A stretch of DNA of 48,128 bases from a virus (lineage: Duplodnaviria > Heunggongvirae > Uroviricota > Caudoviricetes), in IMG/VR virus record IMGVR_UViG_2529292716_000011; one strand, written 5' to 3'. This document shows positions 2,650 to 48,128 of the stretch, piece after piece. Below the pieces are notes generated by a model, which was given only the letters and a program-made list of their open reading frames with translations, was not told where the DNA came from and did not search any database. Positions within the stretch are counted from its first letter, which is position 1, and each line of letters opens with the position of its first letter. The position numbers and the translations under genes are program-made.

Positions 2650-2810
2650 TTTATCAGTTCGCTCCCATCCGTACCAGTCCGCAAAATCCCCTGAATATCA
2701 AGCCTTCCGTATATTCACGGTTCGTCATGGTTCGCGTCAGATCGTTGACAGCCGCACTCCATGACGGGTAAAAAGTGGATAAAATAATTTTACCCACCGG
2801 ATTTTTACCC

Positions 2811-3968
2811 ATGCTCACCGTTAAGCAGATTGAAGCAGCAAAGCCGAAAGAAAAACCATACCGCCTTCTCGATGGTAATGGCCTGTACCTTTATGTTCCT
2901 GTATCCGGGAAAAAGGTATGGCAGCTTCGCTACAAGATTGACGGTAAGGAGAAAATCCTGACCGTCGGAAAATATCCGCTTATGACTTTGCAGGAAGCAA
3001 GGGATAAGGCATGGACTGCGAGGAAAGACATCTCGGTTGGCATCGTTCCGGTAAAGGCGAAAAAGGCTTCGTCTAACAACAATTCATTTAGTGCGATTTA
3101 CAAGGAATGGTACGAGCACAAGAAGCAAATCTGGTCAGTAGGCTATGCAACTGAACTTGCCAAAATGTTTGATGACGACATTTTACCCATCATCGGCGGT
3201 CTTGAGATTCAGGATATTGAGCCGATGCAACTGCTGGAAGTAATCCGCAGATTTGAAGATCGCGGTGCAATGGAGCGAGCCAACAAAGCCCGCAGAAGAT
3301 GCGGCGAGGTTTTTCGTTACGCTATTGTCACCGGAAGGGCTAAATATAACCCGGCACCTGACCTTGCAGACGCCATGAAAGGATACCGCAAGAAGAACTT
3401 CCCGTTCCTTCCAGCAGACCAGATGCCTGCATTCAACAAAGCACTGGCAACATTTTCAGGAAGTATCGTATCGCTCATTGCGACCAAAGTTTTACGCTAC
3501 ACAGCCCTAAGAACAAAAGAGCTTCGTTCCATGCTATGGAAGAACGTCGATTTTGAAAACAGGATTATCACCATCGACGCCAGTGTGATGAAGGGACGCA
3601 AAATTCATGTGGTCCCGATGTCAGACCAGGTGGTTGAACTTCTCACTACGCTAAGCTCAATCACCAAACCAGTCTCAGAGTTTGTTTTTGCCGGGCGCAA
3701 CGATAAGAAGAAGCCAATCTGCGAGAACGCGGTATTGCTTGTGATCAAACAAATCGGCTATGAAGGTCTGGAAAGCGGTCACGGATTCAGGCATGAATTC
3801 AGCACGATTATGAACGAGCACGAATGGCCTGCTGACGCTATTGAAGTGCAGCTGGCACATGCCAACGGCGGATCTGTGCGCGGTATTTACAACCATGCTC
3901 AGTATCTCGATAAGCGCAGAGAAATGATGCAGTGGTGGGCGGATTGGCTTGATGAAAAAGTGGAGTAA
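2811..3968 (+). CDS. intS: P4-type tyrosine integrase (IntS-like)
   Basis: Integrase translation immediately downstream of the tRNA 3' end; start chosen at ATG 2811 (MLTVKQIEAAK, 385 aa); the ORF track's upstream start 2775 gives 397 aa. Confidence 0.85.
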   Translation: MLTVKQIEAAKPKEKPYRLLDGNGLYLYVPVSGKKVWQLRYKIDGKEKILTVGKYPLMTLQEARDKAWTARKDISVGIVPVKAKKASSNNNSFSAIYKEWYEHKKQIWSVGYATELAKMFDDDILPIIGGLEIQDIEPMQLLEVIRRFEDRGAMERANKARRRCGEVFRYAIVTGRAKYNPAPDLADAMKGYRKKNFPFLPADQMPAFNKALATFSGSIVSLIATKVLRYTALRTKELRSMLWKNVDFENRIITIDASVMKGRKIHVVPMSDQVVELLTTLSSITKPVSEFVFAGRNDKKKPICENAVLLVIKQIGYEGLESGHGFRHEFSTIMNEHEWPADAIEVQLAHANGGSVRGIYNHAQYLDKRREMMQWWADWLDEKVE

Positions 3969-5414: not shown

Positions 5415-5444
5415 ATCATCCACCCAATTGGTAATGACTCCAAC

Positions 5445-5948
5445 TTATTGATAGTGTTTTATGTTCAGATAATGCCCGATGACTTTGTCATGCAGCTCCA
5501 CCGATTTTGAGAACGACAGCGACTTCCGTCCCAGCCGTGCCAGGTGCTGCCTCAGATTCAGGTTATGCCGCTCAATTCGCTGCGTATATCGCTTGCTGAT
5601 TACGTGCAGCTTTCCCTTCAGGCGGGATTCATACAGCGGCCAGCCATCCGTCATCCATATCACCACGTCAAAGGGTGACAGCAGGCTCATAAGACGCCCC
5701 AGCGTCGCCATAGTGCGTTCACCGAATACGTGCGCAACAACCGTCTTCCGGAGACTGTCATACGCGTAAAACAGCCAGCGCTGGCGCGATTTAGCCCCGA
5801 CATAGCCCCACTGTTCGTCCATTTCCGCGCAGACGATGACGTCACTGCCCGGCTGTATGCGCGAGGTTACCGACTGCGGCCTGAGTTTTTTAAGTGACGT
5901 AAAATCGTGTTGAGGCCAACGCCCATAATGCGTGCAGTTGCCCGGCAT
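5445..5948 (-). CDS. insB: IS1 InsB frame (expressed as InsAB' by -1 frameshift)
   Basis: 167-aa ORF; A6C slippery motif present upstream. Confidence 0.9.
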
Positions 5949-6142
5949 CCAACGCCATTCATGGCCATATCAATGATTTTCTGGTGCGTACCGGGTTGAG
6001 AAGCGGTGTAAGTGAACTGCAGTTGCCATGTTTTACGGCAGTGAGAGCAGAGATAGCGCTGATGTCCGGCAGTGCTTTTGCCGTTACGCACCACCCCGTC
6101 AGTAGCTGAACAGGAGGGACAGCTGATAGAAACAGAAGCCAC
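5867..6142 (-). CDS. insA: IS1 InsA
   Basis: 91 aa, [16 protein letters not shown]...; zinc-finger/HTH protein of IS1. Confidence 0.92.
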
Positions 6143-6946
6143 TGGAGCACCTCAAAAACACCATCATACACTAAATCAGTAAGTTGGCAGCATCACCAGC
6201 CTTCTTGAGGCTACCACCTGTTTTCAGGTGTCATTCAGACGTGATTTGCCCCAGATTGGGAAAGCACGCTTTTTTCTCAGCTATCGTCCTCTTATTTTGC
6301 CGTTACATTTCTTTTTGCATTCTAATGATTAATTTACAATAATAATATCGGTAATTATTGAGTAATAATAAATTAATTATTGCAAATGTAATTTAATTCC
6401 ATCTTCGCGTTATATTCCAATCTTTAATCTCCGCATGGAACAAGTTGCATGCGTGACTATATTAAGACGACTTATAACCACCAAAACATTTGCTTTGCAA
6501 GCAAAAACAGTGACCATTGACTCTAAGAAAATTCCGATCTATTGTTAGGGTCATCAAAGTTACTTAACAGTATTCCGAAATGAAAATACAAAGCAAGCTA
6601 ATTGTCTTATTAAACATTATTATTGCATTTATATTATTTGAGCTTTTAGCTCAAAAATTTGGTTTGAGTACATTATTTTAAAGCAAGATAAACAATATCG
6701 GGCACTCTAGTTTTTATAATTAACAATTAAACGTCCATAAAATGTTATTTACTTTTCTTCGCTATTGTCATATCTTAATATAGTGGCTTACGCCACTCTA
6801 CTTTCATCACATTTTGTACGTTTATGTACTCGCCATGAAGCTCTTTCATGGCGATTTTTTATTCTTAATCCAAGAACATACTCCCTACCTATAGCAAAAT
6901 CACTTTTTTAACAAAAGAATAACGTATTTAGGTAATCATTACGAAT

Positions 6947-25848: not shown

Positions 25849-29529
<3,681 letters not shown>

Positions 29530-29555
<26 letters not shown>

Positions 29556-30075
29556 TCAGCAACCCCGGTATCAGTTCATCCAGCGCGGCTGCTTTGTTCA
29601 TGGCTTTGATGATATCCCGTTTCAGGAAATCAACATGTCGGTTTTCCAGTTCCGGAAAACGCCGCTGCACCGACAGGGGGATCCCGTCGAGAATACTGGC
29701 AATTTCACCTGCGATCCGCGACAGCACGAAAGTACAGAATGCGGTTTCCACCACTTCAGCGGAGTCTCTGGCATTTTTCAGCTCCTGTGCGTCGGCCTGC
29801 GCACGCGTAAGTCGATGGCGTTCGTACTCAATAGTCCCTGGCTGGAGATCTGTCTCGCTGGCCTGCCGCAGTTCTTCAACTTCCCGGCGCAGCTTTTCGT
29901 TCTCAATTTCAGCATCCCTTTCGGCATACCATCTTATAACGGCGGCAGAGTCATAAAGCACCTCATTACCCTTGCCACCGCCTCGCAGAACGGGCATTCC
30001 CTGTTCCTGCCAGTTCTGAATGGTACGGATACTCGCACCGAAAATGTCAGCCAGCTGCTTTTTGTTGACTTCCAT
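29530..30075 (-). CDS. Nu1: terminase small subunit Nu1
   Basis: 181 aa; lambda gpNu1-like with winged-HTH N-terminus. Confidence 0.93.
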
Positions 30076-30280
30076 TGTTCATTCCACGGACAAAAACAGA
30101 GAAAGGAAACGACAGAGGCCAAAAAAGCCCGTTTTCAGCACCTGTCGTTTCCTTTCTTTTCAGGGGGTGTTTTAAATAAAAACATTAGGTTACGGCGAAG
30201 AAGAACGGAAACGCCTTAAACCGGAAAATTGTCATAAATAGCGAAAACCCGCGCGCCTTCCGCCCCGTAACCTGTCGGAT
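30076..30280. other. cos region (cosB and cosN; cohesive-end 12-mer at 30254-30265)
   Basis: Flanks match the lambda ends (cgcgggttttcgctatttatga... and ...gatccgacaggttacg); the 12-mer reads gggcggaaggcg on the phage top strand instead of gggcggcgacct. Confidence 0.75.
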
Positions 30281-30301
30281 CGCCGGAAAGGACCCGCAAA
30301 A

Positions 30302-31345: not shown

Positions 31346-32251
31346 CTATATTTCCAGACATCTGTTATCACTTAACCCATTACAAGCCCGCTGCCGCAGA
31401 TATTCCCGTGGCGAGCGATAACCCAGCGCACTATGCGGATGCCATTCGTTATAATGCTCGAACGCCTCTGCAAGGTTCTTTGCTGCCGTTAACCCGTCTG
31501 GTTTGGGCATGATACTGATGTAGTCACGCTTTATCGTTTTCACGAAGCTCTCTGCTATTCCGTTACTCTCCGGACTCCGCACCGCCGTGTTCTTCGGTTC
31601 AAGTCCCAACATCCGGGCGAACTGGCGTGTTTCATTAGCCCGGTAGCATGAACCATTATCCGTCAGCCACTCCACTGGAGACGACGGAAGATCGTTGCCG
31701 AAGCGGCGTTCCACCGCTCCCAGCATGACGTCCTGTACTGTTTCACTGTTGAAGCCGCCGGTAGTCACCGCCCAGTGCAGTGCCTCACGATCACAGCAGT
31801 CCAGCGCGAACGTGACACGCAGTCTCTCTCCGTTATCACAGCAGAACTCGAACCCGTCAGAGCACCATCGCTGATTGCTTTCTTTCACGGCCACTCTGCC
31901 TGTATGTGCCCGTTTCGATGGCGGTACAGCAGGTTTTCGCTCAAGCAACAGCGCATTCTGGCGCATGATCCGGTAAACACGTTTGGCATTGATCGCAGGC
32001 ATACCATCAAGTTCTGCCTGTCTGCGAAGCAGCGCCCATACCCGACGATAACCATACGTGGGCAGCTCTCCGATAACATGGTGTATACGGAGAAGCACAT
32101 CCGTATCATCAGTGTGACGACTGCGGCGGCCATCCATCCAGTCATCGGTTCGTCTGAGAATGACGTGCAACTGCGCACGCGACACCCGGAGACAACGGCT
32201 GACTAAGCTTACTCCCCATCCCCGGGCAATAAGGGCGCGTGCGCTATCCAC
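31346..32251 (-). CDS. insD: IS2 transposase InsD
   Basis: 301 aa; DDE transposase. Confidence 0.92.
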
Positions 32252-32574
32252 TTTTTTGCCCGTCCATATTCAACGGCTTCTTTGAGGAGTTCATTTTCCA
32301 TCGTTTTCTTGCCGAGCAGGCGCTGGAGTTCTTTAATCTGCTTCATGGCGGCAGCAAGTTCAGAGGCAGGAACAACCTGTTCTCCGGCGGCCACAGCAGT
32401 AAGACTTCCTTCCTGGTATTGCTTACGCCAGAGAAATAACTGGCTGGCTGCTACACCATGTTGCCGGGCAACGAGGGAGACCGTCATCCCCGGTTCAAAG
32501 CTCTGCTGAACAATTGCGATCTTTTCCTGTGTGGTACGCCGTCTGCGTTTCTCCGGCCCTAAGACATCAATCAT
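32209..32574 (-). CDS. insC: IS2 InsC
   Basis: Start at [13 protein letters not shown] (121 aa). Confidence 0.9.
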
Positions 32575-33090
32575 CTGTACTCCAATGACTAGTCTAAAAA
32601 CTAGTATTAAGACTATCACTTATTTAAGTGATACTGGTTGTCTGGAGATTCAGGGGGCCAGTCTAACGATACAGCGCATGATGTGTCAGGCTTGAATACC
32701 TTTATCCTTTAAAAGGGATATCAGTTAAGTTATCCCGTGTAGGGTATAAGCCATTATCAAAGCCACTCTGTAGGGAATGGCTTTTGTGATGGCATCACTT
32801 ACTCTTTACGCTGCTATCCCACTCATCCCGGAATTTTGATGGGTTATTGAAACCTTCTGCTGACATAACAACTCCTTCAATGTTTGGCTGAAATTGGGAT
32901 GTCTTTCCATCAGTCCGCCACCACAAAGAATCTTTTTTGCCATAAGGCAGGAGGTTCATCTTTCAGTGGCTGCCGGTGTTATTTCCCCACTTACTGGCTT
33001 GGGTTGTTTCGTGGTACTGCCGTTAACTGGTGGCCCAGAATAAATTCCGGTTTCATTATCAAGCCCACCCGTAAATGGGCTTTGTAATGG

Positions 33091-35211: not shown

Positions 35212-35401
35212 AACCCCACCTCGCAGACAAAGCGGGTGTAAATTGAGGGAATACTACGAAACGTAACAGACTCGGAGTCAGTGAATAACTCAGGTATTGG
35301 GTTATCAGCTAATATCGAGACTCAAAAAATGGAAAAACCCGCTCGACGGCGGGTTTAAGCTGTGTGACGAAGTAACCACTCTTAACAGCATAACCAATTT
35401 T

Positions 35402-36168
35402 GGTGATGCTGCCAACTTACTGATTTAGTGTATGATGGTGTTTTTGAGGTGCTCCAGTGGCTTCTGTTTCTATCAGCTGTCCCTCCTGTTCAGCTACTGA
35501 CGGGGTGGTGCGTAACGGCAAAAGCACTGCCGGACATCAGCGCTATCTCTGCTCTCACTGCCGTAAAACATGGCAACTGCAGTTCACTTACACCGCTTCT
35601 CAACCCGGTACGCACCAGAAAATCATTGATATGGCCATGAATGGCGTTGGATGCCGGGCAACAGCGCGCATTATGGGCGTTGGCCTCAACACGATTTTAC
35701 GTCACTTAAAAACTCAGGCCGCAGTCGGTAACCTCGCGCATACAGCCGGGCAGTGACGTCATCGTCTGCGCGGAAATGGACGAACAGTGGGGCTATGTCG
35801 GGGCTAAATCGCGCCAGCGCTGGCTGTTTTACGCGTATGACAGTCTCCGGAAGACGGTTGTTGCGCACGTATTCGGTGAACGCACTATGGCGACGCTGGG
35901 GCGTCTTATGAGCCTGCTGTCACCCTTTGACGTGGTGATATGGATGACGGATGGCTGGCCGCTGTATGAATCCCGCCTGAAGGGAAAGCTGCACGTAATC
36001 AGCAAGCGATATACGCAGCGAATTGAGCGGCATAACCTGAATCTGAGGCAGCACCTGGCACGGCTGGGACGGAAGTCGCTGTCGTTCTCAAAATCGGTGG
36101 AGCTGCATGACAAAGTCATCGGGCATTATCTGAACATAAAACACTATCAATAAGTTGGAGTCATTACC
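35402..36168 (+). mobile_element. IS1 copy 2 (767 bp) with 8-bp target duplication CCAATTTT; one A missing from the frameshift A-run
   Basis: Terminal repeats present; CCAATTTT at 35394-35401 and 36169-36176; slippery run is A5C where copies 1, 3 and 4 have A6C, so insA reads on to 99 aa. Confidence 0.93.
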
Positions 36169-40769: not shown

Positions 40770-41208
40770 TTATGTTGCCATGCGAAGTATGCATGGCTGC
40801 ATGTCTGCCTTCCATTTAAAATGGGCTAAGACCTATAACCCTAAATATTATTCTTTATTATCTTCTTTACCACTTCGGTGATGCTGCCAACTTACTGATT
40901 TAGTGTATGATGGTGTTTTTGAGGTGCTCCAGTGGCTTCTGTTTCTATCAGCTGTCCCTCCTGTTCAGCTACTGACGGGGTGGTGCGTAACGGCAAAAGC
41001 ACTGCCGGACATCAGCGCTATCTCTGCTCTCACTGCCGTAAAACATGGCAACTGCAGTTCACTTACACCGCTTCTCAACCCGGTACGCACCAGAAAATCA
41101 TTGATATTGTCAGCGCCAGTGATATAAGACGGTAATTCGCCATTTGGATTGTCCGCTCCACCCAACATGTTGTTTCCTTAAGGTTCTCACACCAGAAAGG
41201 ACATCAAC

Positions 41209-43178
<1,970 letters not shown>

Positions 43179-43259
43179 CGAAAGTATTTAGCGGGCATGA
43201 AAATGGCAAATAACGGTCAAACATCGTGGCGTTGACAATATGGCCATGAATGGCGTTGG

Positions 43260-43763
43260 ATGCCGGGCAACTGCACGCATTATGGGCGTTGGCCTCAACA
43301 CGATTTTACGTCACTTAAAAAACTCAGGCCGCAGTCGGTAACCTCGCGCATACAGCCGGGCAGTGACGTCATCGTCTGCGCGGAAATGGACGAACAGTGG
43401 GGCTATGTCGGGGCTAAATCGCGCCAGCGCTGGCTGTTTTACGCGTATGACAGTCTCCGGAAGACGGTTGTTGCGCACGTATTCGGTGAACGCACTATGG
43501 CGACGCTGGGGCGTCTTATGAGCCTGCTGTCACCCTTTGACGTGGTGATATGGATGACGGATGGCTGGCCGCTGTATGAATCCCGCCTGAAGGGAAAGCT
43601 GCACGTAATCAGCAAGCGATATACGCAGCGAATTGAGCGGCATAACCTGAATCTGAGGCAGCACCTGACACGGCTGGGACGGAAGTCGCTGTCGTTCTCA
43701 AAATCGGTGGAGCTGCATGACAAAGTCATCGGGCATTATCTGAACATAAAACACTATCAATAA
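43260..43763 (+). CDS. insB: IS1 InsB frame of interrupted copy 3
   Basis: 167 aa, one substitution relative to copy 1. Confidence 0.85.
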
Positions 43764-43911
43764 GTTGGAGTCATTACCCGCTTGCAGTAACGGCGAAAGG
43801 GGCAATGACAGCGCTGCCATGTCGACAAGAACTGGAATAGTGAGAAGTAAACGGCGAAGTCGCTCTTATCTCTAAATAGGACGTGAATTTTTTAACGACA
43901 GGTAGGTAATT

Positions 43912-45159
43912 ATGGCACTGAATATTCCATTCAGAAATGCGTACTATCGTTTTGCATCCAGTTACTCATTTCTCTTTTTTATTTCCTGGTCGCTGTGGTG
44001 GTCGTTATACGCTATTTGGCTGAAAGGACATCTAGGGTTGACAGGGACGGAATTAGGTACACTTTATTCGGTCAACCAGTTTACCAGCATTCTATTTATG
44101 ATGTTCTACGGCATCGTTCAGGATAAACTCGGTCTGAAGAAACCGCTCATCTGGTGTATGAGTTTCATCCTGGTCTTGACCGGACCGTTTATGATTTACG
44201 TTTATGAACCGTTACTGCAAAGCAATTTTTCTGTAGGTCTAATTCTGGGAGCGCTCTTTTTTGGCCTGGGGTATCTGGCGGGATGCGGTTTGCTTGACAG
44301 CTTCACCGAAAAAATGGCGCGAAATTTTCATTTCGAATATGGAACAGCGCGCGCCTGGGGATCTTTTGGCTATGCTATTGGCGCGTTCTTTGCCGGCATA
44401 TTTTTTAGTATCAGTCCCCATATCAACTTCTGGTTGGTCTCGCTATTTGGCGCTGTATTTATGATGATCAACATGTGTTTTAAAGATAAGGATCACCAGT
44501 GCGTAGCGGCGGATGCGGGAGGGGTAAAAAAAGAGGATTTTATCGCAGTTTTCAAGGATCGAAACTTCTGGGTTTTCGTCATATTTATTGTGGGGACGTG
44601 GTCTTTCTATAACATTTTTGATCAACAACTTTTTCCTGTCTTTTATGCAGGTTTATTCGAATCACACGATGTAGGAACGCGCCTGTATGGTTATCTCAAC
44701 TCATTCCAGGTGGTACTCGAAGCGCTATGCATGGCGATTATTCCTTTCTTTGTGAATCGGGTAGGGCCAAAAAATGCATTACTTATCGGTGTTGTGATTA
44801 TGGCGTTGCGTATCCTTTCCTGCGCGCTGTTCGTTAACCCCTGGATTATTTCATTAGTGAAGCTGTTACATGCCATTGAGGTTCCACTTTGTGTCATATC
44901 CGTCTTCAAATACAGCGTGGCAAATTTTGATAAGCGCCTGTCGTCGACGATCTTTCTGATTGGTTTTCAAATTGCCAGTTCGCTTGGGATTGTGCTGCTT
45001 TCAACGCCGACTGGGATACTCTTTGACCACGCAGGCTACCAGACAGTTTTCTTCGCAATTTCGGGTATTGTCTGCCTAATGTTGCTATTTGGCATTTTCT
45101 TCCTGAGTAAAAAACGCGAGCAAATAGTTATGGAAACGCCTGTACCTTCAGCAATATAG
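43912..45159 (+). CDS. cscB: sucrose:proton symporter CscB (oligosaccharide/H+ symporter, LacY family)
   Basis: 415 aa, 12-TM MFS permease; translation recognised as CscB from memory; no cscK/cscA/cscR nearby. Confidence 0.8.
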   Translation: MALNIPFRNAYYRFASSYSFLFFISWSLWWSLYAIWLKGHLGLTGTELGTLYSVNQFTSILFMMFYGIVQDKLGLKKPLIWCMSFILVLTGPFMIYVYEPLLQSNFSVGLILGALFFGLGYLAGCGLLDSFTEKMARNFHFEYGTARAWGSFGYAIGAFFAGIFFSISPHINFWLVSLFGAVFMMINMCFKDKDHQCVAADAGGVKKEDFIAVFKDRNFWVFVIFIVGTWSFYNIFDQQLFPVFYAGLFESHDVGTRLYGYLNSFQVVLEALCMAIIPFFVNRVGPKNALLIGVVIMALRILSCALFVNPWIISLVKLLHAIEVPLCVISVFKYSVANFDKRLSSTIFLIGFQIASSLGIVLLSTPTGILFDHAGYQTVFFAISGIVCLMLLFGIFFLSKKREQIVMETPVPSAI

Positions 45160-47267: not shown

Positions 47268-47415
47268 GATAGTATATAGCGGGCAAGTTTTAGTTAATTT
47301 ATCGAGGTAATATAATTTACCTCGACTCGTTTATTCTGGTATGAATATTTCGCTTTACGATCGATTTTTATCTGATGATATCATGCGGTTTTCATATACT
47401 GACTTACTGTCTTTT

Positions 47416-48128
47416 GGTAATGACTCCAACTTATTGATAGTGTTTTATGTTCAGATAATGCCCGATGACTTTGTCATGCAGCTCCACCGATTTTGAGAAC
47501 GACAGCGACTTCCGTCCCAGCCGTGCCAGGTGCTGCCTCAGATTCAGGTTATGCCGCTCAATTCGCTGCGTATATCGCTTGCTGATTACGTGCAGCTTTC
47601 CCTTCAGGCGGGATTCATACAGCGGCCAGCCATCCGTCATCCATATCACCACGTCAAAGGGTGACAGCAGGCTCATAAGACGCCCCAGCGTCGCCATAGT
47701 GCGTTCACCGAATACGTGCGCAACAACCGTCTTCCGGAGACTGTCATACGCGTAAAACAGCCAGCGCTGGCGCGATTTAGCCCCGACATAGCCCCACTGT
47801 TCGTCCATTTCCGCGCAGACGATGACGTCACTGCCCGGCTGTATGCGCGAGGTTACCGACTGCGGCCTGAGTTTTTTAAGTGACGTAAAATCGTGTTGAG
47901 GCCAACGCCCATAATGCGTGCTGTTGCCCGGCATCCAACGCCATTCATGGCCATATCAATGATTTTCTGGTGCGTACCGGGTTGAGAAGCGGTGTAAGTG
48001 AACTGCAGTTGCCATGTTTTACGGCAGTGAGAGCAGAGATAGCGCTGATGTCCGGCAGTGCTTTTGCCGTTACGCACCACCCCGTCAGTAGCTGAACAGG
48101 AGGGACAGCTGATAGAAACAGAAGCCAC
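47416..48128 (-). mobile_element. IS1 copy 4, cut by the window end
   Basis: End ggtaatgactcc at 47416; insB 47431-47934 and insA 47853-48128 intact; A6C motif intact. Confidence 0.93.

Follow-up and report, generated by a model that had tools for sequence, protein, structure and literature searches.

A recurrent lambda-type cosN allele with an altered right half beside nearly unchanged terminase genes

Introduction

The nicking site of lambda-like phages, cosN, is structurally symmetric but functionally asymmetric (Feiss et al. 2015, PMC4669245). Mutations at bp 7–12 have minimal effects: C11G is silent, whereas the symmetric change G2C costs about 10-fold (PMC4669245). Natural variants are known from N15 and phiD326 (bp 9 and 12) and from Gifsy-1 (bp 8, 9, and 11), and the left half of cosN, the flanking CG pairs, and cosQ are conserved among lambda-like phages (PMC4669245). 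Lambda terminase gave equal yields with cosN-lambda and cosN-N15, neither the lambda nor the N15 enzyme showed cosN specificity (PMC4669245, Table 4), and chromosomes pairing a lambda end with an N15 end, mismatched at two bases, were viable at a lower yield (PMC4669245). According to the interpretation in PMC4669245 and PMC9026076, TerS at R3 anchors TerL, which renders bottom-strand nicking insensitive to sequence. Regarding individual ends, the GenBank record of N15 gives GGGCGGCGTCCG as the physically determined end, and mEp213/LLS have been inferred to carry GGGCGGCGCGCT (PMC12315714). The survey of natural cosN variation by Vahanian et al. (2017), as represented in the papers that cite it, found the first bases and the flanking pairs to be conserved.

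Results

Sequence of the cohesive end

The window analyzed here is the whole 48,128-nt stretch of viral DNA, in which cos and the terminase genes are read on the minus strand. The cohesive-end 12-mer (30254..30265, minus strand) was read directly as GGGCGGAAGGCG and aligned to lambda (NC_001416) and to its prophage form DE3. Together with the conserved CG base pairs flanking each nick site, it forms a 16-bp cosN at 30252..30267 (minus strand; ACG^GGGCGGAAGGCG^CGCG). The lambda 12-mer, GGGCGGCGACCT, reads alike in NC_001416 and in DE3 at its annotated ‘cos site’, and agrees with the sequence quoted in the earlier note. The two sequences differ at bp 7, 8, 9, 10, and 12, with C11 kept; the note's claim of a difference at 5 of 12 positions, made without naming the strand, was confirmed by this minus-strand alignment. 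All of the mismatches are confined to bp 7–12, the right half (cosNR), which changes from CGACCT to AAGGCG. The left half (GGGCGG) is unaltered, the 13 bases to the left of the top-strand nick are those of lambda, and the CG pairs at both nick sites are kept, as in other lambda-like cos sites.

No indels relative to lambda were observed in cos bp 1–200, and the remaining mismatches in this range are single substitutions at positions 35, 71, 73, 78, 97, 102, 134, 137, 139, and 140, none of which lies in R3 (50–65), R2 (109–124), or R1 (151–166). The clustering in the cohesive end is non-random: when 21 mismatches were placed randomly in the 270-nt alignment, five of them fell within one 6-nt window in 408 of 200,000 placements. 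The G+C content of the 12-mer is 10/12, the same as before the change. The number of rotationally symmetric positions in the 16-bp site, counted from the sequence, drops from 10 in lambda to 8 in the window, and the idea that the variant gains or restores two-fold symmetry was rejected on this ground.

Between cosN and R3, the substitution at cos bp 35 (window position 30231, minus strand) is an A-to-C change (ATGACAAT). This change, which marks the sub-lineage of the window, was present at 11 of 83 loci with the variant and at 1 of 119 with the canonical allele.

Flanking cos subsites and terminase genes

The packaging-termination signal cosQ (GGGTCCT) was located by alignment at 30289..30295 (minus strand) and is identical to its lambda counterpart (bp 48473–48479). 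Its spacing from cosN is also that of lambda, in keeping with a lambda-like cos. Within cosB, R1 (lambda bp 151–166; CTGTCGTTTCCTTTCT) lies at 30100..30115 (minus strand) and is identical to lambda. The same is true of R2, an inverted 16-mer at 30142..30157 (minus strand; lambda bp 109–124); the repeat itself was read from the sequence, and its limits were set by the 16-bp repeat common to R1. R3 (lambda bp 50–65, limits from PMC9026076; AGGCGTTTCCGTTCTT) is found at 30201..30216 (minus strand), again identical to lambda. A complex cosB (R3-I1-R2-R1) is thus present at the lambda distance from cosN, as in lambda-like cos sites. The substitutions at 71, 73, 78, and 97 fall in or near the I1 region and are common to Stx1 phages with a canonical cosN.

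The cosN site is directly upstream of the minus-strand genes Nu1 and A, so that genes for a Nu1-type TerS and a gpA-type TerL adjoin cos, as is typical of the lambda-like arrangement. Nu1 (TerS; 29530..30075, minus strand) is full length (181 aa) and 98.4% identical to lambda Nu1 (K48R, A75T, L132I). A (TerL; 27630..29555, minus strand) has a GTG start as in lambda and encodes 641 aa that are 99.5% identical to lambda gpA (T151S, D185E, T466I), and the 68-aa head-tail adaptor W (27427..27633, minus strand) is 100% identical. The Pfam family Phage_Nu1 was found in identical Nu1 proteins of other genomes, and both GpA_ATPase and GpA_nuclease domains are present in the exact gpA of the window, a protein listed in 3,604 index blocks. 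The earlier description of the flanks and the Nu1/A terminase as lambda-like was therefore borne out by the identity of cosQ and R1–R3 and by the near-identity of both terminase subunits.

Judged on every trait that sequence can test, the window site belongs with the lambda-like cos sites and, among these, with the known cosNR variants. It shares with lambda the architecture, the spacing, cosQ, the left cosN half, the flanking CG pairs, and R3/R2/R1, and differs from it in cohesive-end bp 7, 8, 9, 10, and 12 and in the lower count of symmetric positions. With N15, phiD326, Gifsy-1, and mEp213/LLS it shares substitutions within bp 7–12 together with the retained left half and CG pairs, and it differs from these named examples in degree: they depart from lambda at 2–3 positions, whereas the window allele departs at 5 of the 6 right-half positions. 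In addition, the terminases next to the named variants are more diverged (for N15 TerL, identity to the lambda protein is about 65%; PMC4669245), while the window allele sits with essentially lambda's own terminase. In the searched literature, no phage paper contained GGGCGGAAGGCG or its reverse complement, the matches being to plant and Streptomyces papers on unrelated subjects; a listing of the allele may exist in Vahanian et al. 2017 (Virology 509:140), which lies outside that literature.

State of the prophage copy

The structural half of the prophage looks intact, with ORFs from Nu1 through J, stf, and tfa of lambda-like length. The other half is badly disrupted and, moving away from cos, contains in order a DUF1398 gene, an IS3-family element (31346–32619), KilA-N, Rz, and R, then IS1 (35401–36168), a porin gene, Q, rusA, ybcO, ybcN, an IS1 fragment, and IS21 (41209–43178), and then a partial IS1, the chromosomal gene lacY (43912–45159), and a further IS1 at the edge of the window. 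Beyond tfa, at the opposite end of the prophage, come IS1 and then intS (2775–3968), yfdC (1567–2499), and mlaA (518–1273). Immunity, replication, and integration genes were absent from the prophage part of the window, and no complete E. coli genome covered more than 48% of the region to the right of cos.

Five full or partial IS1 copies (5430–6198, 35401–36168, 40877–41107, 43238–43778, and 47414–48128; 99.3–100% mutually identical), the IS3-family element, and IS21 (istA/istB) bracket and truncate the prophage within 48 kb. So many IS elements, together with the mosaic gene order, point to an E. coli chromosome that is Shigella-like or has otherwise undergone IS expansion. The lacY gene lies a few kb from the Q-rusA-ybcN remnant, and intS-yfdC-mlaA abuts the other prophage end; since these loci are far apart in E. 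coli K-12, an IS-mediated rearrangement is implied. What makes the window prophage cryptic is the loss of its early region to IS elements, which has nothing to do with cosN. The term ‘cryptic prophage’ used by the earlier note thus holds for the replacement of the early region by IS elements and lacY, and is not supported as the cause of the cosN change. This copy of cos would be usable only if the late genes were expressed in trans or in situ.

Distribution of the variant

The variant 12-mer was detected in 159 of 5,426 complete E. coli genomes (154 chromosome and 16 plasmid places) with a 48-nt query carrying 18-nt flanks, for which megablast seeds only if the variant bases are present. For comparison, about 3,510 of the 5,426 genomes contain a lambda-type cos region. 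An exact-pattern scan of IMG/VR recovered 78 contigs, a count that, like those of the scans with a free right half, is conditioned on exact flanks. The sequences read placed the identical 12-mer in at least 12 left-flank haplotypes; carriers read included E. coli 582, APEC E14033, SBF22, and FHI_NMBU_03, the plasmids pAH01-1 and pG749_3, and the deposited phages PhiR46_1 and YDC107_1, and the differences among them were confined to the left flank. The 12-mer, which had been put forward as unusual, is therefore a common cos allele among lambdoid phages, and the observation loses most of its surprise.

The variant prophage of E. coli 582 has an unbroken gene set from exo/bet to Q, lysis, and Nu1 through J/stf, and is apparently complete. 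PhiR46_1 (PV340565, host ECOR13) combines the variant cosN with Nu1 and A genes of full length. By name it belongs to the PhiR series, a set of lambda-related temperate phages that has served as a panel for plaque assays, and from the GenBank metadata and the naming and description of the panel (panel paper: Brenes & Laub 2025) we infer that PhiR46_1 forms plaques. In the phage collection, the variant 12-mer stands at neither end of any record; both phage matches are internal and in prophage-style permutations. A scan of species-representative genomes, a collection that holds one genome per species and says little on frequency, yielded nine variant loci; only that of Escherichia sp. E1V33 is a real cos, and the other eight were rejected as chance matches in G+C-rich non-enteric genomes.

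The variant carriers also included many ~46-kb plasmids with a lambda-type Nu1/A packaging module (L132, L134, and others; 45.8–68 kb), and YDC107_1 (L130) is classified as a Ravinvirus (N15-like). The plasmid carriers and YDC107_1 appear to be phage-plasmids with swapped-in lambda-type packaging genes. In the variant-cos prophage of APEC E14033 (L127; NZ_CP126948, 26184–38485), an ~11-kb insertion interrupts the major capsid gene and brings with it major capsid and head-decoration genes of its own, as well as genes for a tyrosine integrase, an Icd-like protein, a primase, and an SSB. This insertion looks like a capsid-encoding satellite integrated into the capsid gene of its helper.

Right-half alleles and their association with terminase

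The series of right-half alleles was obtained from scans in which the right half was left free between the flanks ACG...CGCGGGTTTTCGC, and all recovered alleles keep GGGCGG and the flanking CG pairs, a result imposed at least in part by the patterns, which required both. The canonical CGACCT was found at at least 122 loci and AAGGCG, the right half of the window, at 87, followed by CAGGCG (4 loci), CAGACG and AGACCT (3 loci each), and CTGACG, CGACCG, AAGGCT, and AAGCGT (1 locus each). AAGGCG is thus the second commonest allele in the recovered series, and intermediates are rare; CAGGCG is one step from AAGGCG. N15-like or mEp213-like alleles (bp 9 not A after CG) were not found by the scan in a lambda-type flank.

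A one-step allele, GGGCGGAGACCT (bp 7 C to A), was carried by the deposited phage PhiR70_1 (L001) and by two viral contigs (L223 and L224), the latter with an N15/Monarch-like cosB.

Among 94 full-length gpA sequences (47 per allele), no column separated the two alleles, the best separation being 0.23, and nearest neighbours were interspersed between them. Full-length gpA was present at 47 of 52 variant loci, compared with about 45 of 61 canonical loci. A search of public assemblies for the exact gpA of the window returned eight genomes, seven with the canonical and one with the variant cosN. At L236, L238, L240, and L243, gpA and Nu1 are both 100% identical to those of the window, yet cosN is canonical; L237 combines the window-identical gpA with the variant. 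The variant lies beside TerS/cosB of the lambda type at 51 loci, of the 21 type at 16, and of the N15/Monarch type at 4, and the canonical allele likewise occurs beside all three types. A search for co-varying positions elsewhere in cos showed that only bp 7–10 and 12 separate the alleles perfectly. Taken together, the identity of gpA and Nu1 across alleles and the three TerS types indicate that cosN assorts independently of both terminase subunits.

Downstream of cos, the ungapped comparison of the window with L237 and L194 breaks down almost at once, as would be expected if the non-coding stretch before Nu1 differed slightly in length. At four canonical-cosN loci (L105, L017, L019, and L123), the Nu1 position is occupied by an unrelated 169-aa ORF (VATQTEVARHLSLTDRQLRRL...) with a TerS-like C-terminal half. 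Its product may be a TerS of a further specificity type or else a redirecting protein of a satellite.

Discussion

The window 12-mer is very probably a functional, naturally occurring lambda-type cosN allele in which only the cosB-proximal right half has been replaced. On this reading, Nu1 would bind the unchanged R3-I1-R2-R1 array of cosB and position gpA at a fixed distance from it; this gpA would cut the bottom strand at the bp 12/13 junction, with the local sequence mattering little, and a second gpA would nick the top strand via the conserved left half (ACG^GGGCGG). Nicking by terminase at the usual two positions would generate GGGCGGAAGGCG 5' overhangs, and the product would be a chromosome with 12-nt 5' overhangs consisting of this sequence and its complement. 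The ends would be expected to anneal, as they are self-compatible because both ends of one chromosome derive from the same allele. Bp 7–12 presumably vary and tolerate mutation because the cosB-anchored terminase nicks there with little regard to sequence, with the proviso that the published tolerance data concern single to triple changes and the window allele changes 5 of 6 positions. Weighing against a functional allele, position 12 lies directly at the bottom-strand nick and position 10 belongs to the symmetric base pairs.

The earlier note had offered two alternatives, of which the variant cohesive end gains from the recurrence of the allele, the intact terminase genes, and the three TerS types; decay abolishing packaging finds no support as the origin of the 12-mer. 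The latter would make the clustered changes a mutational degeneration of a cryptic prophage's cos that prevents cutting and packaging, and the window prophage is indeed defective and IS-interrupted, with its immunity/replication/integration region replaced by lacY and chromosomal DNA. However, the identical 12-mer in 159 E. coli genomes and 78 viral contigs, on many flanking haplotypes and beside three TerS types, makes such an origin very improbable, as do the mostly intact gpA at variant loci and the presence of the variant both in a deposited phage, from a panel used for plaque assays, and in a prophage that appears complete. In the window itself, Nu1, A, and W have their full length, with identities to lambda of 98.4% or higher, and none of the ~20 head and tail ORFs departs from a lambda-like length. 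Decay would not spare cosQ, the left half, the CG pairs, and R1–R3 and yet strike 5 of 6 adjacent bases; neither a private lesion nor decay of the other subsites or of terminase, the marks of a pseudo-cos, was found here.

Arens and colleagues are said to have described, in 1999, gpA suppressor mutations that widen cosN specificity, and co-evolution of protein and site is conceivable in view of such suppressors. The variant could then represent a distinct nicking specificity that needs a co-adapted TerL and would not be cut by standard lambda terminase. This is hardly credible, being largely refuted by four independent genomes in which gpA and Nu1 identical to those of the window accompany the canonical cosN. 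The alleles are not told apart by any gpA column, the window gpA differs from that of lambda only at the three conservative positions 151, 185, and 466, and the lack of cosN specificity in the lambda and N15 terminases (PMC4669245, Table 4) argues in the same direction. The probability that the sequence is a sequencing or assembly artefact of a G+C-rich stretch is negligible, given its identical recovery in many independent assemblies from different laboratories and platforms.

A further proposal adds to the explanation by a functional allele and does not compete with it, namely that the allele both works and defines a second cohesive-end compatibility class, which would act as a partial barrier to exchange across cos. 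Chromosomes cut from a mixed canonical/variant concatemer would carry ends that mispair at 5 of 12 positions, which would prevent circularisation. The two abundant alleles with only rare intermediates are in line with this proposal, as are the occurrence of both alleles in the same terminase backgrounds, which means that mixed concatemers could be cut, and the lowered yield of viable chromosomes with the 2-base lambda/N15 mismatch (PMC4669245). On the other hand, mismatch tolerance is known for 2 bases and not for 5, the rarity of intermediates may simply reflect the low overall divergence of the region, and the shuffling of the allele among many flanks implies frequent exchange next to cos, against a strong barrier. 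We therefore hold the proposal to be rather unlikely. The broader statement that E. coli lambda-like phages fall into two major cohesive-end classes, with AAGGCG as the second, and that the two classes are cohesive-end incompatibility groups, is speculative to a similar degree.

The result fits the established picture in which the cosB-proximal half of cosN is free to vary. A change of 5 of the 6 right-half positions beside terminase proteins that, residue for residue, also occur next to the canonical site is stronger natural evidence for sequence-independent bottom-strand nicking than the usual variants of 2–3 bases. In practical terms, annotation and phage-end prediction tools that seek GGGCGGCGACCT will miss cos in about 3% of complete E. 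coli genomes (159/5,426), or in roughly 1 in 20 of the genomes with a lambda-type cos region, and cosmids or in vitro packaging substrates that mix both alleles may yield non-cyclising products. If the two-class proposal were true, the alleles would provide a natural demonstration that the bottom-strand nick of lambda TerL is set almost entirely by the distance from cosB and not by sequence, and the incompatibility groups would shape DNA exchange and co-packaging across cos among co-resident lambdoid phages, phage-plasmids, and satellites.
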